This document shows positions 5,778 through 49,973 of a stretch of DNA of 64,000 nucleotides, in pieces. Source of the stretch: a virus. The number at the start of each line of letters is the position of its first letter. The first letter of the stretch is position 1. The DNA lies in the IMG/VR virus record IMGVR_UViG_3300021356_000015, positions 2,624-66,623 of that record, one strand, 5' to 3'. The notes under the pieces are model-generated. The model saw only the letters and a program-made list of their open reading frames with translations. It ran no database searches and was not told the DNA's origin. Both the position numbers and the translations under genes were made by a program.

Positions 5778-5804
5778 TTATATAACCTAAGATTTAAAAG
5801 TTTC
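5778..5804 (-). promoter_or_regulatory. Putative middle (ECF-type) promoter
   Basis: GAAAC-N17-TATAA. Confidence 0.7.
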
Positions 5805-6036
5805 AGTCTTCTATGCAAATAATTCCGCTATGTGTATCAACTATAGAGGAATCTTGAGTAGCAACTTCCAATACTGATTCGGAGTGAGCTGCACACTTAA
5901 TGCCAGAAGAAGAGTTAGATTCTTTCATGTCAGCAAATGCCTTAGCCTCTTGAATCATAGATTCACTAGGAGCACTGCAAGTTGTGCAAACCACACAAAA
6001 GAAAGCCGAAGCCGATAGTAAAGTTATCTTATTCAT
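5803..6036 (-). CDS. Small putative lipoprotein/secreted protein
   Basis: Hydrophobic N-terminus ending in Cys (MNKITLLSASAFFCVVCTTCS). Confidence 0.5.
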   Translation of the reverse strand: MNKITLLSASAFFCVVCTTCSAPSESMIQEAKAFADMKESNSSSGIKCAAHSESVLEVATQDSSIVDTHSGIICIED

Positions 6037-6037
6037 C

Positions 6038-6403
6038 TTACTGTTGCTTGTTTTTAAATTCTATCCACTCTTCAAGATTATCTGAGTTTCCAGTTGGCTC
6101 ATATACATTCACCTTAATGACTGTATCTTGTTGCTGGTTATATTTATCTTCGATCGACACTAAATCTACCGAAATTGCGATTTCTTTACCATGGACCTCT
6201 AAAATTAGATATTCTCCATTTACTGACATGCCAACATAATGAGCTACACTATCAGGTAAAGCTTCAGCTGTTTCTGGTTGATAAGGATTAGTTCCGTTAA
6301 AATAGCGAGGACTCCTTATCATAACCTGATTCTTACATGCGTAGAAACCAAATATGACGCTAAAGAAAGCTACCGCAGCTATCAATCTCTTAATTGCTTC
6401 CAT
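6038..6403 (-). CDS. Putative lipoprotein
   Basis: Signal peptide with lipobox-like FYAC followed by KNQ. Confidence 0.6.
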   Translation of the reverse strand: MEAIKRLIAAVAFFSVIFGFYACKNQVMIRSPRYFNGTNPYQPETAEALPDSVAHYVGMSVNGEYLILEVHGKEIAISVDLVSIEDKYNQQQDTVIKVNVYEPTGNSDNLEEWIEFKNKQQ

Positions 6404-7613
6404 TTACGTATATTTTAGTTACAGATCGAGTACCGTTGTGATACTCAATGCTTAACATATATATTCCGGAAATCATAGGTAAGTTTTCATTGACTTGCTT
6501 ACCGTGAATATCATAGTAAACGTAATTTTTAACTTGTTCGTTTTGAGTTAACTCTTGAACATTAACAATAGGAGATCCAAAACAATCATAACCTGGATCA
6601 GCATATTCACAGCTACCGTCATCGTAAATTGCATCTTGATCGTAGTTACACGCTTCTGAATCTATACATCCTGTTTCAGTACCGTCGCAAAAATCATTGT
6701 CAATGTGCTGTTGTCTAAATGCCTCCATTCTTTCGTGCATTCTTTCAATCTGGCCTATAGTAAATCCGGTCCTACAATTTCCGCTATAGTATCCCATCAT
6801 ATTAGTTGGACTTTCACCGCATGCTGAAGAACACCCAAACCAAGGTATAGTTGGCTCAGTATCACATATGTAATCACCCTGTGTATCACAATTAGTTTCG
6901 GTTTGTGCTTCTTCGCAATTACTGTATGTGGACCACCCATTTGCAAAGGTATGCAATAATCCACACCAATGGCCTACTTCATGTGATAAAGTTGTATTTT
7001 GATTACTTGAATTTGTAATATGATCTCCAAAACCAAAACGCCCGGTTCTAATCCATATGCCAAGATTAGAAGGAGGAGTACTTGTAAATCCAGAAAAACC
7101 AGATGTCCATGGAGCAACAAATATTTCCATGTAATTACTTACACTATAACTATGTGCATTTTGAAGGCCAATATAGAAATTATTATCTGTTATATTTCCA
7201 AGTGAACCATCATATGGTTCATAATCATTTAAATCGTGATATAGTATACCGAACGATTGAGCACCAGTAAGTGTCTCGTTAGAGATACAAAAATCAATAA
7301 ATGTATCATTATCATCTTCTGTCAAGCCTGAAAAAACTTGATTTAAGTGATCGATAGCTTCAATGACTATTTCTTGAGTTAAGTGTGATCCTTCTCCATA
7401 TGCTTCACCTTCGTGAAATATATGGACGATCACTGGTATCGTTTTTTGTTCAAAGGAAGATCTGGAATATGTGATTCCAGGTAACGCTCGCATTGCGAAG
7501 GTGCTATCAGCTGATATGTCTTTAAGAATCATATGCTCATGGCCACACGGTGACTGAGACATAAGATTAAATGTAGCCAATAGAATTGTTAAGAGAAGTG
7601 TTAAACGTTTCAT
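6390..7613 (-). CDS. Secreted M43 (pappalysin/ulilysin-like) zinc metalloprotease with T9SS-type C-terminal domain
   Basis: Signal peptide MKRLTLLLTILL (start likely 7613), IPVIVHI, HEVGHWCGLLH, Met-turn NMMGY, GCIDSEACNYD repeat, C-terminal YYDIHGK...SGIYML...KIYVN. Confidence 0.8.
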   Translation of the reverse strand: MKRLTLLLTILLATFNLMSQSPCGHEHMILKDISADSTFAMRALPGITYSRSSFEQKTIPVIVHIFHEGEAYGEGSHLTQEIVIEAIDHLNQVFSGLTEDDNDTFIDFCISNETLTGAQSFGILYHDLNDYEPYDGSLGNITDNNFYIGLQNAHSYSVSNYMEIFVAPWTSGFSGFTSTPPSNLGIWIRTGRFGFGDHITNSSNQNTTLSHEVGHWCGLLHTFANGWSTYSNCEEAQTETNCDTQGDYICDTEPTIPWFGCSSACGESPTNMMGYYSGNCRTGFTIGQIERMHERMEAFRQQHIDNDFCDGTETGCIDSEACNYDQDAIYDDGSCEYADPGYDCFGSPIVNVQELTQNEQVKNYVYYDIHGKQVNENLPMISGIYMLSIEYHNGTRSVTKIYVNGSN

Positions 7614-7617
7614 GGTA

Positions 7618-7670
7618 CAATATACCATATTTATTTCAATCCTGAAAATATTTTAACACTTTTAACATTT
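7618..7670 (-). promoter_or_regulatory. Putative early (host-sigma) promoter
   Basis: TGTTAA direct repeats upstream of GGTATATTG; same layout near 10890, 11580 and 39100. Confidence 0.5.
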
Positions 7671-7671: not shown

Positions 7672-7742
7672 AGGTTCGGGATGGACTTGCACCACCGTAA
7701 AAGGCTTTGCGAGCCTTCACCTAACTACTCGGACACCGAACC
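7672..7742 (-). tRNA. tRNA-Cys(GCA), atypical C33
   Basis: Acceptor GGTTCGG/CCGAACC, U73 discriminator, anticodon arm AAGGC-TCGCAAA-GCCTT. Confidence 0.8.
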
Positions 7743-8129
7743 GTTTTCGATCTTAGATCTATGCTTATACCACTTAACTAAGTGAGAAGCTGTGCTATAA
7801 TTTGTAGCTAATGGACAGTTATGCACATCACATACTCTCATCAACATAGAGATATCAACATCATGAGCATGTTTACCAAGAGGATCTCTAAAGAAAATAA
7901 CCAAATCGATTTCAGATCTGGTGACCATAGCTGCAATTTCAGCGTCTCCTCCCATTGGACCACTAGCAACTCTTTCTACCTTCTCAATACCGGCGTGAGC
8001 GACGTGATTACCTGTTGTTCCAGTTGCAACTATAGAGACACCTTCTGCATTAAAGAAATTAAGTCTCTTTGAAACGAAGGCGACCATATCTGCCTTCTTA
8101 TTATCATGTGCTATAAGTGCTATCTTCAT
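7725..8129 (-). CDS. mgsA: Methylglyoxal synthase
   Basis: IALIAHDNKK, ATGTTG, SGPMGGD, FFRDPL, HDVDI and LATN motifs all intact. Confidence 0.95.
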   Translation of the reverse strand: MKIALIAHDNKKADMVAFVSKRLNFFNAEGVSIVATGTTGNHVAHAGIEKVERVASGPMGGDAEIAAMVTRSEIDLVIFFRDPLGKHAHDVDISMLMRVCDVHNCPLATNYSTASHLVKWYKHRSKIENGSVSE

Positions 8130-8226: not shown

Positions 8227-9264
8227 TTAGCTTATAAGATGCGGCTTTGCCTCTGCAAGACCCGCATTAGTTACTGCGTTGTACTCAACCTTGGACCAGT
8301 ACTCGCTAGTAGTAGATGCTCCAGTGTATGAGAATGCTGACTTAATACCATCGATAAGACCAGCAAGGATAAACTTAACTCCACCCTTGAAAGGTACAGT
8401 AGTAGATTCTCCTTCAACGTTACGTTGCTTTTGATTGTGAGTAATCTTAGTCTCAAGAGATGCAGATCCTCTGTAACGCTTGTAAAGACCACGTGCATTT
8501 TCTAAGATAGCACCTGGTGATTCCTTAGTTCCTGAAATTAAGGATCCAACCATTACGCAATCTGCTCCAACTGCGAGTGCCTTAGCAATATCACCAGAGG
8601 ACTTAATACCTCCATCTGCCATGATAGGCACATCTCTAAAGTTACCTTCGACGCAGTCAAGGATTGAGGTCACGTTTGGAACACCGAATCCAGTCTGAAC
8701 TCGAGTTGTGCATAGAGAACCACCTCCGATACCAACGCGAAGGCCATCAGCTCCCCAATTAACTAAGTCTCTTGCTGCCTCTTCGGTTGCAACGTTGCCT
8801 GCGATTACATCGACAGTTGTGTGTAGGTTTTCCTTAAGCGTTGCGATTGCAGTGCGTACGTTAGCGTGGTGACCGTGCGCAACGTCGATTAAGATGATTT
8901 GGCATCCAGCTGCGCAAAGCGCTTGTGCGCGCTCAAGATAATCATCGACTGCCCCAACTGCAGCCATGATCGGAAGATCCCAGCAAGATTCAGGTGAGTT
9001 TTGTTGAAAGTGCTTGACTTTTGCGACTTCAGCTGCTTGATCTTCGATGCTCATAAAACGGTGAATACATCCAACACCTCCCATCTCCATCATTGCGATA
9101 GCCATCTCGCTTTCACAGACAGTGTCCATGCAAGATGCTACGATAGGAACTCGAATCTTATAATTACGAGAAACGTTGGTTGTTAGATCAATATCTTGGC
9201 GTGTGACAATATCAGAGAACTTGGGAATCAACTGAATATCATCGTATGTTAGTGCTTGCTTCAT
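8227..9264 (-). CDS. guaC: IMPDH/GMP reductase family enzyme without CBS domains (GMP reductase more likely)
   Basis: LTYDDI, DVAHGH, GIGGGSLCTTR catalytic Cys loop, MADGGI; flap GSAS...NVEG lacks the IMPDH Arg-Tyr dyad. Confidence 0.8.
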   Translation of the reverse strand: MKQALTYDDIQLIPKFSDIVTRQDIDLTTNVSRNYKIRVPIVASCMDTVCESEMAIAMMEMGGVGCIHRFMSIEDQAAEVAKVKHFQQNSPESCWDLPIMAAVGAVDDYLERAQALCAAGCQIILIDVAHGHHANVRTAIATLKENLHTTVDVIAGNVATEEAARDLVNWGADGLRVGIGGGSLCTTRVQTGFGVPNVTSILDCVEGNFRDVPIMADGGIKSSGDIAKALAVGADCVMVGSLISGTKESPGAILENARGLYKRYRGSASLETKITHNQKQRNVEGESTTVPFKGGVKFILAGLIDGIKSAFSYTGASTTSEYWSKVEYNAVTNAGLAEAKPHLIS

Positions 9265-9283: not shown

Positions 9284-9310
9284 TTATATATGGTTGATTT
9301 AGTTTGTTTC
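9284..9310 (-). promoter_or_regulatory. Putative middle (ECF-type) promoter
   Basis: GAAAC-N17-TATAA upstream of guaC. Confidence 0.7.
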
Positions 9311-9691: not shown

Positions 9692-9743
9692 TTTGTTTTG
9701 TTTACGATACTTATACTTAATGATACTTATTTGTTTCTCTTTG

Positions 9744-10342: not shown

Positions 10343-10369
10343 TTATATATACACGATCTAGTTTGTTTC
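10343..10369 (-). promoter_or_regulatory. Putative middle (ECF-type) promoter within tRNA array
   Basis: GAAAC-N17-TATAA. Confidence 0.7.
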
Positions 10370-10867: not shown

Positions 10868-10940
10868 TTTCGTTCGATAGATACAAGGCTAATATACTAA
10901 ACCTTGCCTAAAGTTTAAAATTTTGGAGTGTTAAAATTTG

Positions 10941-11546
10941 TTAAATTTTAGCCATAGCCTCCATGATAAGCATCTTACCGCGGCGAATACGATTCTTAAC
11001 GGTTTGGAGGTTGACACCATGCTTGATAGCGATGTCTTCGTACTTCATGTTATTGAGAAGACGATCTTCAATGATGTCTCGGTACATTGGCTTGAGACCT
11101 TTAATGCAAGTCAAGGCCAAAGCATATTGTTCCATCAGTTGATTCTCTTCTTCGAGATAGTCTTTCTCGGTACGTTGCTCATAATCGTTGAGCAACTCGT
11201 CGATGGTTTCGTTAACGCCATTAGAGGCAGAGACTTCTACGCCGAAGTCTTTCATACCATCGATACTGTACTTGCGATTGCGCTCGCGAATCCATCCAAG
11301 AGACTCGTTGAAGGCAATGCGATACAGCCAAGTAGTAATTTGATATTTAGGATCGTATTGATCGATCTTAGTCCACATCTTGATCAGAGTATTAGCCAAG
11401 ATGTCTTCGGCTGCTTCTGCATCTTTAACTACATTCATAATATAGTTACGAAGACCTGGTTGAACTCGCTTGTACAGCAAGTTAAAGTCTTTTTCAGATC
11501 GAGTAGCCAAGAAGTTTTCTGCAAGTTCGCGATACGTGCTCTGCAT
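10941..11546 (-). CDS. ECF-type sigma-70 family RNA polymerase sigma factor
   Basis: Region 2 AEDILANTLIKMW...ITTWLYRIAFN; region 4 LKPMYRDII...MKYEDIA...NLQTVKNRIRRGK; start likely MQSTY at 11546. Confidence 0.9.
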   Translation of the reverse strand: MQSTYRELAENFLATRSEKDFNLLYKRVQPGLRNYIMNVVKDAEAAEDILANTLIKMWTKIDQYDPKYQITTWLYRIAFNESLGWIRERNRKYSIDGMKDFGVEVSASNGVNETIDELLNDYEQRTEKDYLEEENQLMEQYALALTCIKGLKPMYRDIIEDRLLNNMKYEDIAIKHGVNLQTVKNRIRRGKMLIMEAMAKI

Positions 11547-11577
11547 GTAAGTTTGTTTAGAGGGGTGAAAGTTACAT

Positions 11578-11635
11578 GGTAAATATACCACAAAAAATTT
11601 AAACGGGAAACTTTAAATGTTAAAAATCGTTAAAA
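11578..11635 (-). promoter_or_regulatory. Putative early (host-sigma) promoter of ECF sigma gene
   Basis: TTAAC repeats followed by GGTATATTTA, resembling the Bacteroidota -7 element TAnnTTTG. Confidence 0.5.
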
Positions 11636-12135
11636 GTTTCCAAAAGTCGCTGTAGTTCTTGAGGCTTATAGCCCCAAAGATCGGTAGACGCATTGATAAT
11701 TCGCTTCTTAGGATCTGACTTGTACTTTTTACCGGGATAGCCAATAACTGAGTAGTACCCATTGGATGACCCTGGCCATTCCTGCATGGGCCAATAAGAC
11801 AAGCTACACTCATAATCCTTAAGAGGAGTAATGCGATTCATTAAGTATGTCTTGGTCGGTAGAAGCTTTTTATTATTCAACAACATAACTGCTTCATCGT
11901 GCTCCGCAGGCAATAGTCTAATAGTTCCCTTGAGTCGTTGTAGTGCGTCTTGTGCAGTCTTGGGATCCCAAGCGAAGTTTCCTAAGTGATAAACTAAATC
12001 TTCGTCTGTGACCACTGAATTCCAATTGCCAATCAACTCGTTAGTCATATTGTCAACGTCCTTAAATGGCCTCTTAAACTTAGAGATTGCGTTGGGTCGA
12101 CCCAACTGTAAGTTAGAAGTCACATATACTTTCAT
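11620..12135 (-). CDS. Calcineurin-like metallophosphoesterase homolog with degenerate metal ligands
   Basis: Family scaffold (RPF..VD.M...LI.NWNSVV...D.VYHLG) but SNLQ, LGNF, AEHD, SYWP and IGYP replace SDxH, LGDF, GNHD, HYP and GHxH. Confidence 0.75.
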   Translation of the reverse strand: MKVYVTSNLQLGRPNAISKFKRPFKDVDNMTNELIGNWNSVVTDEDLVYHLGNFAWDPKTAQDALQRLKGTIRLLPAEHDEAVMLLNNKKLLPTKTYLMNRITPLKDYECSLSYWPMQEWPGSSNGYYSVIGYPGKKYKSDPKKRIINASTDLWGYKPQELQRLLETFNDF

Positions 12136-12165
12136 GTATTGTTATATAAAAATATTGAGGTATGT

Positions 12166-12825
12166 TTATGAAACGCTTAAAGATTCTAATGAATAGTCTA
12201 AACTTCTTGGATCTTTATCACCATATTCTGTGATGTAATTATAGTAACACAATACATCTTTCTCAAATGCAAATTCTTGGGGAGCTAAGCTAAAAAGTTT
12301 AGTTATAAAGAATCCATCTGCACAATAGCCGTCTCCATAAAAACAATCGTGTTTTACTATTAAGTCTCTGTCAACAAAATATTGTGCGCAATCAATTTTT
12401 CCGACTTTTACGTTTTCGGGTTTAGCTGTTCTGATGTCTAGGCCTGAAAAATCAAATCCTCCTACCCACTGAGAAAAAATCAAAACTTTTTTATCAGAAT
12501 ATTCTAAAACCTTTTCATAAAAGTTCTCATGAATAATATTATCGTCGTCTAGTATGTAAATATATCCCAAATCTATCACGTCAGCGATAAGCTTATTAGT
12601 ATAATAGTGCTGACATTTAAAATCACCGCAATGATTGAAATACAGATAAATGTTTTCTTTCAATAGACTCTGCATTAATTGCTTATCTATTGTATTAATT
12701 TTTGCCGTATCAAAAATGATATGCCAATCTATGCTTATTTGATCTGGCACATTGCTGAAAATTGATTTTTTAACCTGTTCTAGGTTTTCAGCCCTTGTGC
12801 ATCGTGTAATAATGTTTATCTTCAT
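12166..12825 (-). CDS. Glycosyltransferase family 2 (GT-A)
   Basis: IITRCTR N-terminus, YILDDDN DxD motif, KIDCAQ, ADGFFI. Confidence 0.75.
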   Translation of the reverse strand: MKINIITRCTRAENLEQVKKSIFSNVPDQISIDWHIIFDTAKINTIDKQLMQSLLKENIYLYFNHCGDFKCQHYYTNKLIADVIDLGYIYILDDDNIIHENFYEKVLEYSDKKVLIFSQWVGGFDFSGLDIRTAKPENVKVGKIDCAQYFVDRDLIVKHDCFYGDGYCADGFFITKLFSLAPQEFAFEKDVLCYYNYITEYGDKDPRSLDYSLESLSVS

Positions 12826-12855
12826 GTAATGTTATACGTAAACTGTAAAATAAGT

Positions 12856-14811
12856 TTATTGTACATCATAGATGCAACGAACCGACATGCCATGGCCTTT
12901 AGAATTACTTGTTTGCCAAAGGTCATTATATCTAGCAATACCATTCTTTGTATCTAAAATGGCTCTTGACCAAGCACTTTCTCTTCTATTTCTTTTTAGT
13001 GAGAAATGTGAGTCTGAAGTCCAATAAGTTGCTATTAAGTCTTGGCCGTAATAAGCACCGTCAATATCTTTGATAACTCCAGCATAAACTGGATTGAAAT
13101 CACTAGCGAAGATAATACTATGCATATCTTGTGCTTCGCCTCTATTTCCAGTAGCATTAAGTTCAGCTGCATTCATACCTATATTCTCTTCAAGTAATTT
13201 CCAATCTAAATCACTAGGAACTCTCCAACCTATAGGACACACGCCTTCATCAATAGCATACCAATTATACAAGAAACCTAAAGTATCTACATCACTTAGA
13301 GGATTGTAATATGCTCCTACTTCATCGTTTCTCCATTCAGATCCCTGTCCTAACTCGTTAATAGAAGCTCCAGAAGTGTATGTTGTTGTTCTTAAGTTTT
13401 CAGCAAACCAACATTGATTTCCCACTAGAGTTAAATCGTAAGTGTAGCCATTATAATTTTCAGTAACGCAATCTTCGGTGTTATCACATATACCATTGTT
13501 ATTTAAATCTTCTGCGCAGTCTCCGCCACAAACACCAATTGCATCTAGTTGGTTACCGTTGCAGTCGCAGTCGCCTACAGGAATATCAGTGCATCCACAC
13601 TGATATATTGCGCCCTGGCCATTACAAACCCCACATGCATCAAAAGAACCTATACAATCATCTACATCGTCGCAAATACCGTCGTCGTCTGAATCAGATT
13701 GACAAGTTCCATTACAAACTCCCAAAGCATCTAATTCTCCAACGCAGTCGTCTACATCGTCGCAAATACCATCTGAATCAGCGTCGGTTTGACAAGATCC
13801 TCCGCAAACACCTATAGCATCTTCATAAAGACATGACCCATCATCAACGGTTGCTAATGCGTTATAATTACATGCGTTGGAGTCAGTACAACCTTCGTTT
13901 GACCCATACAAATTATTACCGTTTGCAAACATAGCTTGCCTATATTGATCTCCCCACGTGTGCATTCTGTCTATTTGACCATCTGTAAACTTTAAATTAG
14001 AGCATCCATGATATGACATTATATTTTCAGGATCTGCACCTTCATTATTAGTACCAACATACCCTAAACACACAACGCTACATCCTCCTAAAACCCCAAT
14101 TTGAGGAGGGGTGTCACAAACCAAGTCTCCTTGAGTTAAACAATTACTTTCTTGACTAGCTTCTAAACATGAAGGATAACCATAATAATAAGTATCATAT
14201 GTTTGCCCTTGGGAAGTTTGTTTGTGAAAAGAATGATATAATCCTAAAAAATGACCTACCTCATGGGCATTGGTTTTACTAGTCGTACTTTTAAAATACA
14301 GAGGATCTACAAAATATCCAGGTACATAGGTAGGATGCAAAAATGTAAATCCAGCAGCGCCCCCAGACATTTCAATAATATAAACGTTTAAATATTGAGA
14401 ATTTAAATAACCAAACGTATTCCAGAAATATCCAGCTGAATCAGCAATAGTCAAATAAGAAGCATTCACATAGAATTCTGTACCGTAATCGTTTAGATCT
14501 ATGTTTCTATATCCATTAAAAGTTTGATTAGTTAATGGATCTACAAATGTATTTCCATCTGGATTACGATCAGCTAATACAAATGTTATTTCTGAATCAG
14601 TTTGATCTGTTGTACCTATTCCTGATTGAAATTGAATATTTAAAAGATCTACAGCATCAACTACCTGAGAGTAGCTAACGTTAGACCCATACCCTAGAGT
14701 ACTTGTGTTATCATGTAGTACATTTACAACAAGAGGTATTATTCTTTCTTGAGAAAGAATTGAATTACACATCGTTAAGCAAAACAATGCAAGTGTAGTT
14801 AGATTTTTCAT
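12856..14811 (-). CDS. Secreted M43 metalloprotease with Cys/Asp repeats and FISUMP (Fib_succ_major) domain
   Basis: Signal peptide; [11 protein letters not shown]; NIMSY; DAIGVCGG...DGICDD repeats; [12 protein letters not shown]...LYNWYA...[13 protein letters not shown]...SVRCI. Confidence 0.85.
13490..13895 (-). repeat. Cys/Asp-rich repeats (DAxGVC[GN][19 protein letters not shown])
   Basis: Near-identical nucleotide copies tctacatcgtcgcaaatacc near 13661 and 13751. Confidence 0.85.
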
Positions 14812-14875: not shown

Positions 14876-17800
14876 TTAGTCTTCTAAAATACATCTAACT
14901 GAAAGACCGTGACCCTTACCCTCACTAGTCTGCCATAGATCGTGATATCTGCCAATAGCTGATAGATCTTGATCTGCAAAAATAGCTCTAGACCATGCGC
15001 TTTCACTGTATCTTGGTCGTGTAGTAAAGAAAGAGCTTTGCGTCCAGTAATAGCCTGCATTTCCAAGTTGTCTAAATTGACCGTCAATGTCAACTCTTAA
15101 ACCTCCAAAATCACCAGACCAACCTGTTGTTCCATTTGGACCAATAGCATCGCCAGTTAATGTAGAAATACCTCTATATCCGGTTGAATTTAATTCAGCT
15201 CTAGGCATACCTGTAAAGTCTTCAAGGTCTTTAAAGTCTTTATCAGTAGGAACTCTCCAACCTGCTGGACATACACCTTGTTCAACTGCATACCAATTGT
15301 ATAAGTATCCATATTGATCATCATTACTAATATCATTATTATATCTCGAGAATGCTCCAGAAGTTGCATCTGACCAAGCTTGATTGCCTGTTATTTCGGG
15401 AATTGGTTGACCCGAGGTGTACTGGCGAGTTCTTAGGTTTTCAGTAAACCAACATTGGTCTCCTATTTGTTCAACGTCGTAAGTATAGTTATCCCAAGTT
15501 GGAGATAAACAGCTTAGAAGTTCAGCTTGTTGAGCAACGTCACAAATGCCGTCACCGTTTACGTCAAACGCACAATCACCTCCACAGATACCTATTGCGT
15601 CTTCAACTTGACCAGCACAGTCGCAAGCGCCTTCAGGTATGCCATTACCTCCGCAGACACCACACTCATCACGTACTAGAATAGCACCATCGCTAACGTT
15701 AGCAGTAGGATCAAAATTACAAAGTAAAATTGGATTTAAAGAAGTAGATTCTTCATTAATGTCTTGATAAGGCAAAGAGTATATAGTTCCACCTACTCTA
15801 ACTTCGGGGGCTTCAGCTCCAGAAACACATCTAACAGGGTAATAAGAAGTTACCCATGCGCCATAAATTTCGGAACGAGTACAATAAGGCGGTTGGCCAC
15901 AAGATGGTGTAAAGCTATTATATGTAAGACCATCTGAATAATAATCAACAGCACGACCGTTACTTATAAAATTAGGTTCTTCATATTGAGGAAAATTAAA
16001 TCCTGGAACAGCATTACCCGATAGTAATTGAGTAGCTGGAAAATACCAATTTCTTCTTCCATCTATGTCTTTCCATGCTCCCACTGCACCCCAGCCGTCT
16101 CGACCAGCGGTCTTAGAAATTTGATACGGATCTGATCCAAATCCATCTGGATCACTGACTTGAAGCGCACTATTATATGTACCGTTAAATCCAAATTCAT
16201 TTTGACCATAAAATGTGTTACCTGATGGGCCCCCCCAGCCCCATTCTACAACATCAGCTGCGGATACAGTTAAAGCGCTACGAGGAGATTGACCAACTGC
16301 ATCAGCAAGCAATTGAAAGTCAGAAACACTGGCTACTCTAAATCCTTCTGGGCAAATATTCTTTTGGTTAGGATCGTTAGGGTTATCATAAGCCAAGTAG
16401 TTGTAATAGAAGCCCCAGAAATTATCTCTACTGTTAGGTGCATCCCATTCTTCTTGACTAACGAATGCATTATATGGATTCGTTGTTGAGTTGGTAGCTA
16501 ATCTTGGGTCTATATAAGCTGCAAAAAGACTATCTGTGTCTCTAAAAACTTCAGCGTATGTCGACATGTCAGTTGAATCCATTCTCATGATGGGAGTTCC
16601 GTCACTATATACTGATGTCTTAAGATTTTCTGCAAACCAGCATTGATTACCAATAGATACCAAATCATGATCTGTTCCATCAACAGTTATAAATGTTATA
16701 GGATTTCCGTTTACGTCTACACAGTTATTTGCAGCTGAGACGGTATCAATAGCAGCACTAGGATAGCCCGGTGTGTTTATTTTTGCCCAGTATCTTTGTC
16801 CTTCTTGAAGACCGTCAAACCTGGTTTCAGTAACAGCCTTTCTGTATATGTGTTCGTCATGAACATAAGATAAAGATATTATTGTATCTTTAACAACATT
16901 AGCAAAATTTTCATCTGAGGCTAAAAGTATGTTTATATCCCCGGCCTCTACTGTTCCTTGAGACACTGCTTCTATTGAAGTAGTTATAGTACCGGGTTCT
17001 GAAACTTCAAAATCAAAATTTACATCTGCTAATGCAAAAGGATCATTTAAATTAGCATCGTCGCAAAATCCATTATTTCCTCCAGTATAACACTGCTCAT
17101 TAGATACAAAGCCTTCAGGAACATCAAATCTATACATGAGAGGATACGGTAAAGTATCAGGTTGAGTTGTTAGATAAACATCAGTATCTATAGAAGTAAT
17201 CTTTGAACCCATGCCATTAAATCCTACAAAATCAACTCCATTTTGAGGATTACTAAGGTGATCTAACCATGTATCATCCATGGAATAAAGAACATCCGTT
17301 CCATTCAAGAGAACGTTAAAGTTACACCCGTCTAAACAAGATTCGTAGACTAAGTGAGAAACTTGACCTGCTCCAGGACCATCAGTTAGCGCGTATCCAT
17401 CAAAGAATCTAAGAACGTATTCTCCTGGCTCTAAATACCAAGTATTAACAACTTCCCATGAATCATTTGATCCTGTTGCATTATAATATGTAATAAACGG
17501 GTACGTATTTCCATAGACATCGTTGCCATACTTATCAAACTTATAGGTTTCTGATGCTTTGGTTTTATTTGTAAGAAATGAGTTAGACCACCATTTTCTA
17601 CCATCCATAACTATTTCATCAGTATCTACATTATAAATGTCAAATTGCTTAAACATCCAAAACGCTCGCTTATAGTTAGAGGTTATAGATATAGAACCAT
17701 CAGCTTGTCTATCCAGTTGATATGTCTTTGTATTATCTCCTAAGTATGAATCAACAGGAGATTGAGAAACAGAGGCCGTAATTGACCAAGTTCCTACATC

Positions 17801-22945: not shown

Positions 22946-22972
22946 TTATATAGTGTCCTTTGACCAAGTTTC
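22946..22972 (-). promoter_or_regulatory. Putative middle (ECF-type) promoter
   Basis: GAAAC-N17-TATAA. Confidence 0.7.
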
Positions 22973-28586: not shown

Positions 28587-28621
28587 TTTTAATTTGTATA
28601 TTTTGTTTTATATATCACAGA

Positions 28622-31573: not shown

Positions 31574-31630
31574 ATCTTTTGATTTGTTTTTTTACTTTTT
31601 GTATATATCCGTCTTCTTAGGTGTTTTTAC

Positions 31631-37816: not shown

Positions 37817-37826
37817 ATCTTTATAC

Positions 37827-39095
37827 TTAGAATAAGTCACTTAGTTTCTTGGTCTTAGGGTTAGAGTCATGTGGCTTCTTGGCATCAACCTTCTTGATAG
37901 GCTCTTCAGGAATTTCCATGTTAGCGAAAGGATCAACCGAAGCTGGAGCTGAGCTACCCTTCAACCAATCAGTGCCTTCAAGAATCTTATCTTTGTCGAG
38001 CAAGACCTCAATGTTATCAACAGCACCTTCCCATTCTCGATCGATAGTCTCATAGATGGCATTTTGAATGGCATCTGGAATAGTCTTAGTGTGAAGCAAC
38101 ATAAGAGAGATGTTACTGTTTAGATTTGCTTGAATCAAAGCCAAGTTACTATGACCAACAACTCGATAGATGATATCACCAATAGACTCTTTGACTTCTT
38201 TAGAGAAAAGATAGTCGATCTTAAAATCATCGTTCTCTTTCAAGAACTGAGAAATAATCTTATCTGCAGTCTTGTCAGTGATAGAGTAGTTGCGAAGCTT
38301 GCCGTTCTTCATCTCCTTTTGCCAAGTAACAACCGAAGGAATATTGTCTGACTTATCGCCGACCAAGATCTTCTTCAAGATAAACAAGTCACAGTCAACC
38401 TCGGTGATTTCAACCTTGTTGTCTTTGACCCACTGTAAGATATCGCCTTGATAACGATCGCGCATCATATGTTGACCGCCCATATTGAAGAGCATATCAT
38501 CATTTGACAGATCAGAAGAAGCTGAAGCTTCCATAGCTTGAGTAAAGCCTTCGAAGGCATATAAGCTCTTCTTTGTATTGTAGTACCAAATGGTATGAGC
38601 ATCATTGGCCTCAGAATAATTAACCAACTGAATCAAGTCACGGTCACCAGTCCAAACGATACATGATTTACCACGGCCATTAAGCATTGTTGACCAACCA
38701 AAAAGTACATCGTCTGCCTCAGCGCCTTGAGTCTGGTGGATAGTAACACCCTTGCTCTTTAGAATCTCTTGGAACTGCTCGTAAGTACCGTAGACTGCAT
38801 TCCAATCTACATCAGATGATTGCTTTCTAGTGCCTTTATAATCACTCTCAGGATATAGATCCTTACGCCACGATTTAGAGTCAACTGCAATGACAACATC
38901 GTCAACGAAGGCGTTAAGCTTGCGCATCTCAGAGGCAAAGTCAATGCACAACTTGCGCATAAATTGAGCGCGAGCTTTATCATCTCCTAAGAGCTTACCT
39001 GATTTTGGTTTAGGCATCACAAAGAGCCTGCTAAAGACGAAGTAGTTTCCGTCTATTAATAGAGTATGTTTTCCCACCTTCATTTCTTCTTTCAT
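37827..39095 (-). CDS. rnh: T4 RNase H-like 5'-3' exonuclease (FEN family)
   Basis: LLIDGN, DSKSWRK...YKGTR, EADD, TGDRDLIQL, GDKSDNIP. Confidence 0.9.
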   Translation of the reverse strand: MKEEMKVGKHTLLIDGNYFVFSRLFVMPKPKSGKLLGDDKARAQFMRKLCIDFASEMRKLNAFVDDVVIAVDSKSWRKDLYPESDYKGTRKQSSDVDWNAVYGTYEQFQEILKSKGVTIHQTQGAEADDVLFGWSTMLNGRGKSCIVWTGDRDLIQLVNYSEANDAHTIWYYNTKKSLYAFEGFTQAMEASASSDLSNDDMLFNMGGQHMMRDRYQGDILQWVKDNKVEITEVDCDLFILKKILVGDKSDNIPSVVTWQKEMKNGKLRNYSITDKTADKIISQFLKENDDFKIDYLFSKEVKESIGDIIYRVVGHSNLALIQANLNSNISLMLLHTKTIPDAIQNAIYETIDREWEGAVDNIEVLLDKDKILEGTDWLKGSSAPASVDPFANMEIPEEPIKKVDAKKPHDSNPKTKKLSDLF

Positions 39096-40100: not shown

Positions 40101-40117
40101 ATTTATAGCTTTGTAAG

Positions 40118-40145
40118 TTATATGCTTAAAGGCACAAATTGTTTA
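40118..40145 (-). promoter_or_regulatory. Putative middle promoter of clamp loader operon
   Basis: TAAAC-N18-TATAA. Confidence 0.55.
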
Positions 40146-40160
40146 CGTGATAGATATTAT

Positions 40161-40667
40161 ATGATAGATTGGAGAAGGATTAAGATAGAAAGGACAAATG
40201 GGCCTTACCCAAAAAATCGTTACGGTGTTATACTAAGAAACTTGTTGAAGGTTCATAGAAAGTTTCTAGTTGAACATAGACACATAAAAAGATGGGCCGA
40301 AAGCGATCAGTTTATAGAGTGTGCCATAAAAATGCAAAGACCTGGGCAGCGCGATGCCGCCTCAGTTAGGCTTTACTATGACTGGGAAAATGAGAAGCCT
40401 GTCAGCTTAGAAGAGTTTAAGGAAGTGACCAACTACATAGATTGGCAATGCGCTATAAGCCTAAGACCCATCAAAGCCAAGTTTATGAATTTTGATTTAG
40501 AAAACTTTGTCCATCCAGAGTATCACGATACTTTGAACGCCCCAATGGTGGACAGTCGTATACTTAAAAGTTCAATTGAGTTTCGCAAGAAATGCAAAGA
40601 ACTCCTGCTCAATGAGAGACAGGAGTTCCTTAAAGTTGCAAAGAAAGGCGCTAAACGCCGTCTTTAA
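40161..40667 (+). CDS. Hypothetical protein; only plausible plus-strand gene
   Basis: Fills the gap between gp44 and the head gene with no minus-strand ORF; likely start MIDWRR at 40161. Confidence 0.7.
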   Translation: MIDWRRIKIERTNGPYPKNRYGVILRNLLKVHRKFLVEHRHIKRWAESDQFIECAIKMQRPGQRDAASVRLYYDWENEKPVSLEEFKEVTNYIDWQCAISLRPIKAKFMNFDLENFVHPEYHDTLNAPMVDSRILKSSIEFRKKCKELLLNERQEFLKVAKKGAKRRL

Positions 40668-40670
40668 TAT

Positions 40671-42344: not shown

Positions 42345-42406
42345 ATTGATAGTTTATTATATTATCGTTTTTGTATATATCCTCTCGTCTGGCCTAAATT
42401 TGAAGC

Positions 42407-42435
42407 AAAAAGAAAGCCCGCATTCGCGGGCTTTC
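42407..42435 (-). terminator. Intrinsic terminator after major capsid gene
   Basis: GAAAGCCCGC-gaat-GCGGGCTTTC-TTTTT. Confidence 0.85.
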
Positions 42436-42466
42436 CTTATAATGTATTGAATTCTAATCTTTAAGA

Positions 42467-43939: not shown

Positions 43940-44039
43940 AATTAATTTTTTCTTTTTTTGCGGTTTATTTGAATTTCGACATTTACTTGGGCTTTCTGCT
44001 TCTGTCGCCCTATCGTCGATAGTTTATTATATATTCTTA

Positions 44040-44489
44040 TTATTTTTCTCTACGGGCTTTATATTCACTTTCAGCCTTTTTCTGTAGCTTAGCAATTAAT
44101 TTAATTGCATCAGCCAAAAGAAGATTATCCCAATCAACCTTAACTCGATGTGAATCGCCATAAGGATCTGAAAACCACTCTATGAAACCTTTACCCCAGC
44201 CTGCTATACCATAATCAAATGGGCCATCATCTGTATTGATTCCCATTGCGCCTTGGATGGCATCCATGGTATTAAAGGTAAACAAAGGGCCGTCCCAATC
44301 AGGAGGATTAGTTTGAACTGTATAATTTGTTTGATACATTTGCTTGCCGTCAGCATCTTCTTCGGCAGCATATTGTAACATTTTCTTAGCAAACCCCGGA
44401 TTGGATTTTACTTTATCATTAACGTCTACTGTCTTTTCAGTAATAAGATGCTCTTTAGTAAACTGTTCAAAAAGTTTTACGTATTTCAT
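44040..44489 (-). CDS. Head/internal protein with capsid-targeting-like N-terminus
   Basis: MKYVKLFEQFTKEHLITE; lies in the head module. Confidence 0.6.
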   Translation of the reverse strand: MKYVKLFEQFTKEHLITEKTVDVNDKVKSNPGFAKKMLQYAAEEDADGKQMYQTNYTVQTNPPDWDGPLFTFNTMDAIQGAMGINTDDGPFDYGIAGWGKGFIEWFSDPYGDSHRVKVDWDNLLLADAIKLIAKLQKKAESEYKARREK

Positions 44490-46435: not shown

Positions 46436-46493
46436 TATATGGGTCTATTTTTGTTATATATCTGCTTTCTTTGTAGTAAAAATCACTAAATGA

Positions 46494-46832
46494 TTAGATA
46501 CCTAATCCGCCGTCATCTTCCTCTGCCTCTTTCTCTTCTTTCTCTTTCTCTTTTTCTTCTTCAGCCTGTTCGGCACCATAGTCGTTAAAGGCTTTTTTTA
46601 TAGCCGACATAGCCTCTATAGAGAAAGATCCCTCACCATACTTATCGTAAAAATATTGCTCGATTTCCTTCTCTGTATCAGAAGAAATAATGGCTCCTAG
46701 AATCTCTTGAGCAGAAATCTTTTTACCCTTTACAGTAATAACTGAATCTACTTCTACCTTAGAGTCATCTCCTGCCAAAACTGAATCTTTGGTCTCTTTT
46801 ATAAATTGTTCAAATAATCTTAAGTATTTCAT
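46494..46832 (-). CDS. Prohead core protein candidate with capsid-targeting-like N-terminus
   Basis: MKYLRLFEQFIKE; between portal and protease (gp67/68 position). Confidence 0.6.
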   Translation of the reverse strand: MKYLRLFEQFIKETKDSVLAGDDSKVEVDSVITVKGKKISAQEILGAIISSDTEKEIEQYFYDKYGEGSFSIEAMSAIKKAFNDYGAEQAEEEKEKEKEEKEAEEDDGGLGI

Positions 46833-46843
46833 GTTTAGTTAGG

Positions 46844-48442
46844 TTAGAAGCCTAAACCCATGTCATCATCGGGTACTGGTGCTTCAGCGTCTTTTTTGCT
46901 TGTTTTTGATTTAGCAGCATCGTTAGCCGCAATATCGTCAGGTGTTAAGTTGAGGTAACGCTTAACCAAGAATTCCATATCGAAGTAATATTCTTCTTCC
47001 ATAGTTTCTTGGTTAGTTATCATCAAGCTGTCTCTCATAGATGAGATAAAGTCAAGTCTGCGCTCCATGATTTCCATGGTCTTAAGTTCTGCAAATGCAT
47101 TATCCTCGTTAAATTTCATAGAAACTTGAGTTTTAAACTGAGGATCCTCAGCAAATTCAGGATACTTCAAGCACATTTGAATATAAAGCGGCTTGACAAG
47201 AATCTCTTGGAATACAGAGCGAAGTCTATTGATGAACTTACTAAACTTAATCTCGTCTCTAATCATACCATCGGCCGCTAAGTTAAAGTCTCCGCCTCCA
47301 TCTTCATACAAGAATCTAGAGTAAGGAATCTTAGAAACATGCTTTAGTTTATCTGAGAAGTACTTAAGTGCCTCAGTGTCTGATAAGTCTGGACCCTCAC
47401 CTCCAAGAGTTTCGATCTCTGGTTGGTCTCCGTCTTTAGAAGGTAACCAATACTCTTTGTTGAACTGAAGCATAGGCTTGCCATCAGTGGCCAATGTACC
47501 TGAATCCCAATCAAAGTCAACTGTCTCTTTATATGAGTTCATAAGTTGAGCAAGTGATTGCTTAGCACGAGTCTTAGACTTACCTCCAACTGGAATAATA
47601 AACTTCATTCTAAATGAAGCGTTTGTTACAGCCCAGATAACTCTAGTATGCTCCATAATTCTTAGTAGGTTAAACGCCCTAATCAAACGCTCAACGTAAG
47701 AAACTCTAGAGGCGGTAGTGATCGAAGAATATGACAAGTAAATGATTTGTGAATCATAAAGCTTTCTCTCTTTCATTGGGTCATCCTTAAACTGAACCCA
47801 AACTTTCTTACCATCGTCTTGATTATATCCAGGGATCAAGGTCGTTGGATCTAACTCTTTAAATCCAATAATCTCAGTTTGATCTTGATTATAAACTATC
47901 TCAAATGCCAAATAACCATCTATCAAAAATTTTCTAAAGAAATACCAAGCCGATTGGTCTTGGTTAAAGCCAAAGTAATGATAAATCTGATTAAAGTATC
48001 TAACTAAATCCTTATCGACTTTGTCAGAAACTTCCATACCTAAAATTTCAGGTCTTGCGAAGAAGTTTTTCTCGTCATACACGATGGTTTCATCACATAG
48101 AATATCTAAAATATCTTCAATCTCATCGTGCAATGAAAACTCTCTAAGCTCGTCTCTTTTAGCAACATAGTCTTGGTCAAAGAATGGAATATTCTTTCTA
48201 AGCTGCATGTCAGTAAGCGACATAGCCGCAAATGCCGAGTAGATATCATCATTATCTACACCTAATGGGTTAATTTGACCGTAGCCGAAAAGATCCTCCA
48301 TAGGACCTATAGCTTGCGATTGACGTATGACAAGGTCATCGTACCTCATACCAAAGGACGATAGCGTCTTTAGTGAGTCACGCAACCTAAATGGCCTTCT
48401 GCCAGTGCTCAAAGGCCCGTTTCTGTCTGTAAATCCTGCCAT
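46844..48442 (-). CDS. gp20: Portal protein
   Basis: FLIDG, NLLRIME...IWAV, EYWLP...EIETLGG, KIPYSR, RDEIKFSKFINRLR. Confidence 0.97.
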   Translation of the reverse strand: MAGFTDRNGPLSTGRRPFRLRDSLKTLSSFGMRYDDLVIRQSQAIGPMEDLFGYGQINPLGVDNDDIYSAFAAMSLTDMQLRKNIPFFDQDYVAKRDELREFSLHDEIEDILDILCDETIVYDEKNFFARPEILGMEVSDKVDKDLVRYFNQIYHYFGFNQDQSAWYFFRKFLIDGYLAFEIVYNQDQTEIIGFKELDPTTLIPGYNQDDGKKVWVQFKDDPMKERKLYDSQIIYLSYSSITTASRVSYVERLIRAFNLLRIMEHTRVIWAVTNASFRMKFIIPVGGKSKTRAKQSLAQLMNSYKETVDFDWDSGTLATDGKPMLQFNKEYWLPSKDGDQPEIETLGGEGPDLSDTEALKYFSDKLKHVSKIPYSRFLYEDGGGDFNLAADGMIRDEIKFSKFINRLRSVFQEILVKPLYIQMCLKYPEFAEDPQFKTQVSMKFNEDNAFAELKTMEIMERRLDFISSMRDSLMITNQETMEEEYYFDMEFLVKRYLNLTPDDIAANDAAKSKTSKKDAEAPVPDDDMGLGF

Positions 48443-48464
48443 TTTTACAATATTGTATTCAGTT

Positions 48465-49076
48465 TTATATATTCTTCTTTCCGAGGTGGTTTCTAAACCT
48501 CCACTTTATTGAACCAACCGTAGCTCCATTTAAATCTATGAAATCACAAAGAGTTATTCTAGGCCATTCTTCATATGCTACGACGGCTTGATTAGCCTTT
48601 CTATTTGGAATGTATTTTCTAATAGCAAAATCAAACCCAAATTGCTCTAAAAATGCAGAAGCTCCTTCATATGTTAAGGAAAGATGTCCTTGAGCCATAG
48701 CATTATTTGCTCCTACTCCCATAGTTTTTGATTTTATTGATCCTTCTAATCGATCATATACAAAGTCTAATAATTCTTCTTTTACCATCACCGGCAATAA
48801 ATTTAAGTTTATACCTAAATCATTATTATCCTTTGAGTTTAAAGCTAAAACTACTGGATTTCTATCCCACCATTCTAAACTATCTTTATATTTAGGGTCG
48901 TCATATCTAAAAACATATATCTTACCAGGTAAAAATCTAGATGATGTCTTAGCCACAGCCCTCTCATTCATTTTTTTTCTGGAAGTCTCAAACCAATCTT
49001 CAGCCTCTTTTCTAGCTAATCTTTTGCCTCCAGCCTCTCTAGATAATTGCTTTATTGTTTTTTTGATATATCCCAT
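48465..49076 (-). CDS. gp2: DNA end protector protein
   Basis: PGKIYVFRYDDPKYK..L.WWD.NP.V, GINL.LLP. Confidence 0.8.
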   Translation of the reverse strand: MGYIKKTIKQLSREAGGKRLARKEAEDWFETSRKKMNERAVAKTSSRFLPGKIYVFRYDDPKYKDSLEWWDRNPVVLALNSKDNNDLGINLNLLPVMVKEELLDFVYDRLEGSIKSKTMGVGANNAMAQGHLSLTYEGASAFLEQFGFDFAIRKYIPNRKANQAVVAYEEWPRITLCDFIDLNGATVGSIKWRFRNHLGKKNI

Positions 49077-49549
49077 TACTTCAAGCTATTTTCAGTAAGA
49101 ACGATGAATCTCCATCCTCTATCTTCTGCCCATCTTTTGGCATATGCATATTTATCTCTATTCTTGATGTATTGCTCTGCCAAAAACTTGTATGACTTGA
49201 GAGCTTTCTTAGAGTTCTTCTTAGGAGGTTCTGGTTTCTTGATTTGGGCTTCCGGTTTTATCTCTACCAAAAAGTCTTCATATGAATCTCCTTTTTTAAC
49301 TCTCATAAAGAAATCTGGATAATACCTATGCTCTTTACTGTCTAAACTTGACCAATATTTAATCTCTACTGGTTCACTAGACCATGTCAAAACCTCATCC
49401 TTAGTATCGCACATAATCATAAACTTTCTTTCCCAAGAGGATCTATAGATGATAGGTGTTTTACCAGAATATTTTTCAGGGTTCTTAGGGTTAAAGTAAC
49501 CTTGTATGAACCCTGAATTTTTGGTAGGCTTGACATTCTTGATAGACAT
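49076..49549 (-). CDS. gp4: Head completion nuclease (TnsA-like)
   Basis: QGYFNPKNPEKY.G, YRSSWE, WSSE, HRYYPDF, VEIKP. Confidence 0.92.
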   Translation of the reverse strand: MSIKNVKPTKNSGFIQGYFNPKNPEKYSGKTPIIYRSSWERKFMIMCDTKDEVLTWSSEPVEIKYWSSLDSKEHRYYPDFFMRVKKGDSYEDFLVEIKPEAQIKKPEPPKKNSKKALKSYKFLAEQYIKNRDKYAYAKRWAEDRGWRFIVLTENSLK

Positions 49550-49920
49550 CAGATGTTGAATAATCCTCCTTCACCATCTGATGAATTGGATCTATCGATT
49601 GAAAGAGTGTCTTTGTATTTTTGAGGATGAATCTTATTCCATCCTTTAGCATAGCCTCGCTTAGCTATCTCTGTGAAGTAAGCGAATGCATTAGGGTAAT
49701 CTGGATTGAAGTTTCTCCAGTACTTGAGTAAATCTAAAATAGCAAACTGAAGACAATCTTGTCTATCATCTTCGTTTAAGTAACTTAGTTTTCTGATAGC
49801 TCTTTCTGCTATCATGACCAACATCTTTTCAGCCTTCGGCGTCAGTTTCTCTTGTTCCTTTGATTTTACTATCTCGTCATATAAGTCCCTATTGTTTAAG
49901 TAATTCTTTTTTCTAGGCAC
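49549..49920 (-). CDS. gp55: Late transcription sigma factor
   Basis: NYLNNRDL...IAE...LKYWRNFNP...NAFAYFT. Confidence 0.85.
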   Translation of the reverse strand: MPRKKNYLNNRDLYDEIVKSKEQEKLTPKAEKMLVMIAERAIRKLSYLNEDDRQDCLQFAILDLLKYWRNFNPDYPNAFAYFTEIAKRGYAKGWNKIHPQKYKDTLSIDRSNSSDGEGGLFNI

Positions 49921-49946
49921 GTTGATATTGTTAATTTCATTTAATA

Positions 49947-49973
49947 TTATACGAAAAAAGGCCGATTTGTTTA
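49947..49973 (-). promoter_or_regulatory. Putative middle (ECF-type) promoter of gp55, overlapping a terminator hairpin
   Basis: TAAAC-N17-TATAAT; hairpin AAAGGCCGG...TCGGCCTTTTTT spans the -35 element. Confidence 0.7.

Follow-up and report, generated by a model that had tools for sequence, protein, structure and literature searches.

Bacteriophage SPO1 uses host sigmaA, then gp28 and then gp33/34, and the promoter class of each tier drives the sigma gene of the next. In phage T4 the early genes are read with sigma70, the middle genes with AsiA and MotA, from promoters that keep a sigma70-type -10 element, and the late genes with gp55, gp33 and gp45. Here we analyzed a stretch of 64,000 nucleotides of viral DNA (positions 2,624 to 66,623 of IMG/VR record IMGVR_UViG_3300021356_000015), which encodes a gp55-like late sigma factor and a sigma factor of the extracytoplasmic function (ECF) type. 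The whole stretch is called the window below, and all coordinates refer to it. We describe three promoter classes, E, M and L, and propose that they connect host sigma, ECF sigma and gp55 in a cascade. Sigma genes of the cellular or ECF kind have been noticed in the T4 superfamily before: an RpoE-type sigma gene accompanies gp55 in phages PhiM9 and P10VF (PMC4621102), and a second, "fuller" sigma was described in the group 2 T4-like jumbo phages (PMC7824862). The authors of the PhiM9 study suggested a late role for the RpoE-type sigma, in which it replaces gp55/gp33 (PMC4621102).

The window most likely represents about one fifth of the genome of an uncultured jumbo phage of the T4 superfamily, whose host most likely belongs to Bacteroidota. 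The contig that carries it has 66.6 kb and an estimated completeness of 22%, and nearly all window genes lie on the minus strand, the coding strand. PHROG, Pfam and NCBIfam profile scans identified genes of replication and repair (gp44 clamp loader, gp41-type helicase, UvsX, gp46/47-type nuclease and the C-terminal part of a family B polymerase), of morphogenesis (terminase, sheath, tube, gp23-type capsid, protease, portal, gp2-like end protector and gp4-like head closure) and of transcription (the two sigma genes, Table 1), and there are 12 tRNAs. A near-identity DNA search of the phage collection gave tRNA matches only, so there is no annotated close relative. Judged by the capsid protein, the closest named records come from an uncultured 462-kb phage (51% identity), Prevotella Lak phages (39%) and Tenacibaculum phages (31%). 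Among uncultured relatives the sigma gene was found on at least 90 viral contigs and gp55 on at least 512 stretches; one relative, G001, is a complete genome of 256 kb with terminal repeats.

We observed that the two transcription genes stand behind different promoter classes, in the order that a sequential cascade needs: the sigma gene lies behind class E in 59 of 61 unique upstream regions of relatives, and gp55 lies behind class M in 40 of 43. The class E box TATATT[TA][AG] precedes the sigma gene in 55 of the 57 regions of the main clade, the two exceptions being off by one base, and in all four regions of a distant group (37-38% identity). Neither class M (within 150 nt) nor class L was found upstream of sigma in any of the 61 regions. 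Class L was likewise missing from all 43 regions upstream of gp55, and in the three regions without class M an upstream open reading frame (ORF) overlaps. The original prediction, made from the window alone, had placed the sigma gene behind a promoter class other than the two-box motif in front of gp55, and the comparison with relatives bears this out. Directly observed are the three motifs with their conservation and their bias in strand and position, and also which class stands before which gene.

We propose the following course of events. Right after infection the host RNA polymerase holoenzyme would read class E and so transcribe small early genes, together with the one ECF-type sigma gene of the phage. 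The ECF sigma would then displace host sigmaA on the core polymerase and read class M, T-(G/T)AAAC-N17(18)-(A/G)TATAA(t), with transcription starting about 6 nt downstream of TATAA. Genes of replication and of nucleotide metabolism would be under class M control, as would tRNA clusters and the gp55-like gene. In the last tier gp55, a sigma region-2-like protein, would read class L, (G/A)ATATATA, and so drive head, tail and packaging genes. We regard this full cascade from host sigma through ECF sigma to gp55 as fairly probable, though well short of assured.

The class M motif exceeds expectation at two spacings. (G/T)AAAC-N17-TATAA occurs nine times in the window, always on the minus strand, against 0.65 expected, and none of 100 shuffles reached nine. 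The form with N18 occurs three times (40118, 21576, 37821) against 0.57 expected; no shuffle out of 100 reached three. All eight N17 sites named in the original prediction and the N18 site at 40118 are present on the minus strand; the N17 site at 16687-16713 and the N18 sites at 21576 and 37821 are additional. Across spacings from N8 to N27 the minus strand gave nine sites at N17, three at N18 and at most one elsewhere, and the plus strand gave 0-1. Genome-wide enrichment had been proposed as a check, and the N17 peak was found again both in complete G001 and in 1.31 Mb around the sigma gene of 80 relatives. In the latter set there were 300 sites at N17, 78 at N18 and 5-29 at other spacings, with 0-19 on the opposite strand. 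G001 has 30 N17 sites on the coding strand and 3 on the opposite one, against 0-6 at other spacings; in forward/reverse counts its controls were 2/3 (backward pattern) and 2/1 (N14).

The same boxes were obtained when less was imposed. With RTATAAT as the only constraint (547 sites), the 5-mer found 17 nt upstream was GAAAC in 73 cases and TAAAC in 29, and the next best reached 9. The extended logo reads T-(G/T)AAAC, an A/T-rich stretch and (A/G)TATAA-t; a pyrimidine-purine step lying another 5-6 nt downstream has the look of a start point. The T before the -35 box is present in 68% of sites. An unbiased 7-mer scan of G001, intergenic against other DNA, ranked ATATATA first, with 53 of its 73 copies in the 7% intergenic fraction. 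TTATGTC, GTATATT and TATAA-type words followed, and thus all three promoter classes were recovered.

Ten of the twelve class M sites in the window are intergenic, and eight of these end 6-29 nt before a gene or tRNA start; from sites 5778 and 37821 it is 171 and 153 nt, respectively, to the next called gene (Table 1). The motif had been said to precede tRNA, metabolic, clamp loader and gp55 genes. It does so: it stands before two tRNA clusters and before the GMP-reductase-family, phosphoesterase, gp44 and gp55 genes, and the clamp-loader gene of G001 is preceded by a class M site as well. At 12832 and 12142 the gap of just 6 nt between TATAA and ATG suggests leaderless or near-leaderless messages. 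In G001 we found 26 class M sites within 120 nt of a gene start and scanned 20 of the genes; five ORFs of 51-87 aa and one 101-aa ORF crossing a locus boundary were left out. PHROG matches were obtained for 11 of the 20, namely helicase, thymidylate synthase, dCMP deaminase, single-stranded DNA-binding protein, nucleoside triphosphate pyrophosphohydrolase, clamp loader, RNA-binding protein, polynucleotide kinase, gp55-like protein, phrog_1644 and one family of unknown function. In T4 terms this regulon is a middle-gene set.

Two side observations concern the surroundings of class M sites. The 171-nt untranslated stretch at 5607-5777, before the DUF6445 / phrog_1644 gene, is GC-richer and may be a structured leader or a small RNA. 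The G001 homologue of this gene also follows a class M site, with a gap of 79 nt. Rfam found the 12 tRNAs and nothing else in the window, hence no match in the 171-nt leader after the 5778 site. Further, two metabolic genes, one with an MGS-like domain (7725-8129) and the IMPDH/GMP-reductase-family gene (8227-9264), both lie inside a tRNA cluster.

Table 1. Sigma genes, promoter-like sites and the hairpin in the window
Feature	Position	Strand	Remark
ECF-type (group IV) sigma gene	10941..11546	-	201 aa from ATG at 11546
Class E promoter of sigma gene	11547..11640	-	TTTTAAC repeats, then TTTAA-N11-TATATTTA; box 11580-11587, 33 nt before ATG
Second class-E-like box TATATTAG	10889..10896	-	92 nt upstream of tRNA-Ile
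gp55-like late sigma gene	49549..49920	-	123 aa, GTG start
Class M promoter (TAAAC-N17-TATAA) of gp55-like gene	49947..49973	-	26 nt from end of TATAA to start codon
Terminator-like hairpin	49954..49982	-	stem 49974-49982 / 49960-49968, T-run 49954-49959
Class M promoter (N18)	40118..40145	-	17 nt before gp44-like clamp-loader gene 39144-40100
Class M-like site (N18)	37821..37848	-	directly before small uncalled ORF upstream of 37239-37667
Class M promoter	22946..22972	-	29 nt before tRNA-Leu (tRNA-Leu/Arg/Ser cluster)
Motif match inside 1421-aa ORF	16687..16713	-	function doubtful
Class M promoter	12832..12858	-	6 nt from TATAA to ATG of 219-aa gene
Class M promoter	12142..12168	-	6 nt from TATAA to ATG of phosphoesterase gene (11620-12135); sigma gene next downstream
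Class M promoter	10343..10369	-	7 nt before tRNA-Thr (Thr/Asn/Tyr cluster)
Class M promoter	9711..9737	-	before 79-aa ORF
Class M promoter	9284..9310	-	before IMPDH/GMP-reductase-family gene 8227-9264, directly after terminator-like hairpin
Class M promoter	5778..5804	-	then 171-nt untranslated stretch, then DUF6445 gene 5019-5606
Class L box AATATATA	44028..44035	-	88 nt before major capsid gene 42467-43939
Class L box	48466..48473	-	23 nt before portal gene 46844-48442
Class L box	46455..46462	-	19 nt before prohead protease-like gene 44489-46435
Class L box	31602..31609	-	28 nt before tail sheath gene 28622-31573
Class L box	28609..28616	-	22 nt before tail tube gene 28026-28586
Other class L boxes	1601, 3127, 4846, 6458, 20235, 22476, 26493	-	6-54 nt to next feature
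Other class L boxes	34134, 36606, 42374, 51202, 53473	-	6-54 nt to next feature
Class L box	62924-62931	-	271 nt to next called gene

The ECF sigma gene was confirmed by Pfam (Sigma70_r2, 1.5e-12; Sigma70_r4_2, 1.2e-09; regions 2 and 4 only), phrog_1740 and NCBIfam TIGR02937 (sigma70-ECF, 73.4 bits against a cut-off of 42.9). The position of the conserved promoter box, 11580-11587, shows that the predicted start at 11546 is right. The scores stayed below all subfamily cut-offs, the best match being Sig70_bacteroi1 (79.5 against 126.4), and the protein aligns to the solved ECF sigmas SigW, AlgU and RpoE. The class E promoter in front of the gene has the general form of upstream A/T repeats followed by TTT..T(C/T)A-N11-TATATT(T/A)(A/G). 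In the window TATATTWR occurs 21 times against 22.5 expected, and since this is no enrichment, class E cannot be claimed from the window alone; its support is the comparison with relatives. Promoters of the sigma type had also been predicted near 7620, 10890 and 39100. The box near 10890 was recovered, the third one of the window (39097-39104) is imperfect and abuts an ATG, and near 7620 there is no such box.

In G001 the class E cassette reads AAAATAA-N7-AAATATTTTTTTATGTCAA-N11-TATATTTAC..AATTAAAACAA..ATG. About 45 near-identical copies of 60-70 nt were counted by eye, mostly before small ORFs, and one of them precedes the sigma gene. In about 12 of these cassettes the TTATGTCA part is swapped for a GC-rich hairpin (AAGCCCAAA-TTTTTTAG-TTTGGGCTT) with a T-run, that is, a terminator is fused to the next promoter. 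The cassettes lie in loci L161-L173 of G001, for example at positions 231634, 212849, 188354 and 21527.

Proximal autoregulation of the sigma gene was considered and rejected: in relatives the nearest class M site lies 566-7611 nt upstream, and the 61 regions contain none within 150 nt. In the window the sigma gene is 73 nt downstream of the phosphoesterase gene, with a class M promoter 570 nt upstream of sigma, an arrangement unlike that of most relatives; the two genes are separated by a weak AT hairpin only.

The gp55-like gene is real as well, with a match to phrog_234, "late sigma transcription factor" (E 9.5e-12, profile positions 6-115 of 181), and a weak sigma region-2 match in the NCBIfam scan; the G001 homologue matches the same family. 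As had been predicted, a class M promoter stands in front of it. This promoter overlaps a terminator-like hairpin, whose loop is the -35 box and whose T-run is the promoter spacer. The overlap is kept in most relatives (L081-L160), in which the stems differ in sequence yet still pair. In L113, L114 and L120 the box lies outside any hairpin, with the terminator upstream and the promoter separate.

The class L box, RATATATA, occurs 19 times in the window against 10.4 expected, a modest excess (2 of 100 shuffles reached 19). Its strand bias is pronounced, with 18 of 19 boxes on the coding strand in the window and 380 against 4 in relatives. Most boxes lie 17-39 nt before start codons. The original prediction that structural genes carry this element holds for the capsid, portal, protease, sheath and tube genes. 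Marine metatranscriptomes gave 20 RNA runs with part of 40001-50000, all contigs from one study, with best shares of 0.27-0.30; one RNA contig, 49730-49995, spans the gp55 promoter, for which DNA carry-over is possible. We also noted the region 62653-63027, where a strong terminator-like hairpin and the class L box at 62924-62931 are followed by a small uncalled ORF, which encodes a hydrophobic Gly/Ala-rich peptide and precedes the polymerase region. In front of a block of replication genes, a promoter of the late type was unexpected.

Further, we considered which protein may read which class. Motifs like the Shine-Dalgarno (SD) sequence were found in 4 of 52 window genes, and leaders are A-rich. 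The nearest cellular relatives of the GMP-reductase-like gene (8227-9264), with 57-67% identity, are mostly Chitinophagaceae or Bacteroidota metagenome-assembled genomes. Because of the few SD motifs and these affinities, because the best subfamily of the sigma, below cut-off, is a Bacteroides expansion family, and because the nearest named phages infect Prevotella or Tenacibaculum, the host is most likely a member of Bacteroidota. This phylum is described as lacking SD sequences; its sigmaA has the consensus TTTG/TAnnTTTG and does not use promoters of the TATAAT type (PMC6847099). The class E box matches TA..TT of TAnnTTTG, and sometimes its final TG, and thus appears to resemble the -7 element of the primary sigma in the phylum of the presumed host.

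Since Bacteroidota sigmaA does not use TATAAT-type promoters, class M would need a specificity factor that the host's primary sigma does not supply. An AAC in the -35 box is typical of ECF promoters, and the box of B. subtilis SigW is TGAAAC (PMC5758882). The invariant (G/T)AAAC box co-occurs with the ECF sigma gene, a link seen at the level of sequence, and the region 4.2 recognition helix of the phage sigma, QTVKNRIRRGK, aligns to GTVKTRIHRGR of SigW. The helix is retained in the homologues of the window, G001, L023 and LR756500, partly altered in the L074 group and altered in Lak-B2. In each of the five near-complete relatives a single match exceeds the ECF cut-off and a single further one is weak; in G001 the weak one is the gp55-like gene. 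One match over the cut-off and one weak match per relative, together with the host primary sigma, make three factors for three classes. We infer from this that the phage's only two-domain sigma is the obvious candidate reader of class M, and the temporal order of the classes would follow the same assignment. The original prediction held that the ECF sigma drives the middle class, which switches on gp55. Of this claim the wiring stands, with its classes conserved; the sigma as reader of class M is kept as a candidate assignment.

The distribution of the motif among the phages compared fits a link between sigma and motif, with no peak in PTm1 or T4. Counts of the N17 motif on the forward/reverse strand, with the backward pattern as control, were 3/30 in G001 (one ECF match over the cut-off; control 2/3), 12/33 in LR756500 (sigma homologue of 34% identity; control 10/10), 5/2 in PTm1 (no sigma match over the cut-off; control 5/4), 0/1 in T4 (MotA/AsiA system; control 2/0) and 18/5 in Lak-B2 (sigma homologue of 27% identity; control 17/16). 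In the L074-L080 group, where the sigma is 37-38% identical, the peak was at N17 (6 sites) and N18 (12 sites). A search for motA and asiA had also been proposed; AsiA and MotA (PF09010, PF09158) gave no match in the window's record (G000), in complete G001 and in four other relatives, and the T4 control matched with 143.9 and 232.1 bits. As a side observation, Lak-B2 (MK250021.1) carries KAAAC-N12-22-TATAAT, with N18 in 10 of the 32 forward matches listed (counted by hand) and totals not above control; this N18 share is a hint that a related class may exist in Lak phages, and we make no claim of it.

Other readers of class M can be imagined. It might be the host primary-sigma holoenzyme, redirected by a non-homologous phage activator or appropriator in the manner of MotA/AsiA; GAAAC would then be the activator site, and the ECF sigma would serve a small or conditional set of genes. 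Three features would agree with such a mechanism: class M shares a TATAAT-like -10 element with T4 middle promoters, G001 has many early ORFs of unknown function behind class E, and the usual autoregulation is missing from the ECF sigma. We nevertheless consider it unlikely. Both the sequence of the box, an exact TGAAAC, and its spacing are of the ECF type, no MotA/AsiA homologue was found with the T4 control positive, and a universally conserved sigma would be left without a visible promoter class, since just three classes emerge. Moreover, Bacteroidota sigmaA reads TAnnTTTG and not TATAAT-type elements (PMC6847099).

Less likely again is that the reader of class M comes from the host's own set of ECF sigmas, perhaps one that envelope stress induces on infection, and that the phage copy is a stolen paralogue which boosts or secures the same regulon. 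Bacteroidota encode dozens of ECF sigmas (PMC13472631), and the best NCBIfam subfamily of the phage sigma, the Bacteroides expansion family, would agree with such an origin, although the score is below cut-off. However, the phage sigma is conserved on at least 90 viral contigs and present in all five near-complete relatives, its place behind an early-type promoter fits an essential dedicated role, and host ECF sigmas are normally held by anti-sigmas.

The assignment could also be reversed, if the host were not one of Bacteroidota: class M, written as TTGAAA-N18-TATAAT, would be a sigma70-type early promoter of the host, and the phage sigma would read class E. The T before the box in 68% of sites, the TATAAT-like -10 element and the near-canonical spacing agree with this. 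Yet the invariant part is AAAC and not TTG, and g, c or t stands before GAAAC at orthologous gp55 promoters. Class E has no AAC at -35 distance, and class M drives replication genes and gp55, not many small early-type ORFs. With the sigma gene behind class E in 59 of 61 relatives, nothing would be left to start sigma expression, and the low SD content and gene affinities point to Bacteroidota. We find this reading distinctly improbable. That the GAAAC box is conserved as a terminator-hairpin loop or another RNA element instead of a -35 box is hardly credible: in most relatives the box at gp55 does lie in a loop before a T-run, sometimes as a GAAA tetraloop closed by G-C, but L113, L114 and L120 keep it outside hairpins, only 6 of 213 unique class M sites overlap a stem of at least 6 bp with a T-run, and 114 of the 213 lack any stem above 3 bp and show the same logo at the same fixed distance to TATAA, so this candidate is largely refuted.

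Several points weigh against the cascade that we propose. The host is inferred from sequence, and the last base of class E is mostly A, where a G is "nearly invariant" in F. johnsoniae (PMC6847099). The -10 element of class M, (A/G)TATAAt, is housekeeping-like and not of the CGT type known from B. subtilis ECF sigmas (PMC5758882); only some class M sites read CGTATAA. The absence of proximal autoregulation is unusual for an ECF sigma (PMC5758882), and no anti-sigma gene is evident beside the sigma gene, which is followed by tRNA-Ile, no dedicated anti-sigma search having been made. Positive feedback on sigma by read-through from the class M promoter at 12142-12168 is possible, because this promoter lies upstream and only the weak AT hairpin intervenes. 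The phyletic pattern is confounded by relatedness: Lak-B2 has sigma homologues (27% identity) yet no clear N17 excess, and one sigma per class fails in LR756500, because four of its sigma genes are over the cut-off. The gp55-like protein is short and may lack the clamp-binding tail, because just positions 6-115 of the 181 in the profile are covered. The marine metatranscriptome contigs (X1-X4, over 36001-52000) are short, come mostly from the capsid region and gave no starts. Which protein reads which class is thus a proposal.

A widespread clade of jumbo phages of the T4 superfamily, marine and freshwater and with hosts among Bacteroidota, may have swapped MotA/AsiA for a dedicated ECF sigma, free of anti-sigma and autoregulation, which would read hybrid promoters with an ECF-type -35 box (TGAAAC) and a housekeeping-like -10 box (TATAAT). 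The host's unusual primary sigma would be unable to read these, and the phage would thus own a built-in orthogonal promoter system whose output includes gp55. For this joint reading we see belief and doubt as evenly balanced.

Three regions of the window deserve mention apart from the promoters. The family B polymerase match (60618-61823) spans only the C-terminal part of the profile, e.g. 498-841 of 856, and the adjacent upstream ORF 61825-62652 (275 aa) has no Pfam match; the polymerase may be split in two genes. The genes at 12856-14811 and 6390-7628 resemble secreted proteases of Bacteroidota flavour: one combines Peptidase_M43 with a Fib_succ_major domain, and the other weakly matches a metzincin lipoprotein family of Bacteroides. 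Between the 557-aa gene and the clamp-loader promoter, 570 nt (40101-40670) contain no minus-strand ORF. On the plus strand there is an ORF at 40095-40667 (190 aa, TTG start) with no Pfam match, and the region could hold a divergent gene or the decayed remains of a mobile element, or be non-coding.

If the proposed cascade is true, it explains how the timing of replication genes and the activation of gp55 are achieved in T4-superfamily phages that lie outside the enterobacterial group and lack MotA/AsiA. The "second sigma" of jumbo T4-like phages would then have a function, and a phage ECF sigma would have a defined promoter. Sigma and promoter would form a compact and possibly orthogonal pair for Bacteroidota, for which genetic parts are few. 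The sharpness of the three motifs suffices to predict the expression class of hundreds of unannotated genes in uncultured relatives.

In the literature, supplementary files and subscription journals aside, we found no description of an ECF-driven middle class that feeds gp55 in T4-like phages. PhiM9, P10VF and the group 2 jumbo phages share with the window a cellular-type or ECF sigma gene in a T4-superfamily genome with gp55. The reports on them, in the portions available, give the gene and neither promoter class nor wiring (PMC4621102, PMC7824862); in the window the sigma is assigned, by the promoter classes, to the step between host and gp55. That a second sigma occurs in T4-like jumbo phages is thus already known, and what we add, with reasonable though limited confidence, is a SPO1-style cascade on a T4 chassis. 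With B. subtilis SigW (TGAAAC-N16-CGTA) class M and its putative reader share the -35 hexamer, similar spacing and a similar 4.2 recognition helix. They differ from it in the -10 element, which is (A/G)TATAAt and CGTATAA in a subset only, in the lack of proximal autoregulation and in that no anti-sigma is evident alongside.

With T4 itself the window shares the core replication and morphogenesis genes, a gp55-like protein and an AT-rich element of late type in front of structural genes. Late promoters of T4 consist of 8 bp and have no -35 box (PMC2988020); class L appears to resemble them as a -10-only AT-rich element, an upstream box having not been formally sought. The differences from T4 are that no AsiA/MotA was found here, that the middle class has an ECF-type -35 box, that the late box is (G/A)ATATATA instead of the T4 sequence and that gp55 is shorter. 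With SPO1 the window shares the tiered logic of early, middle and late classes on the host core polymerase, as far as it can be read from the DNA. It differs from SPO1 in that the last tier is a T4-type gp55 and not a second two-domain sigma, that the middle sigma is a bona fide ECF-family protein and that the host is probably one of Bacteroidota.

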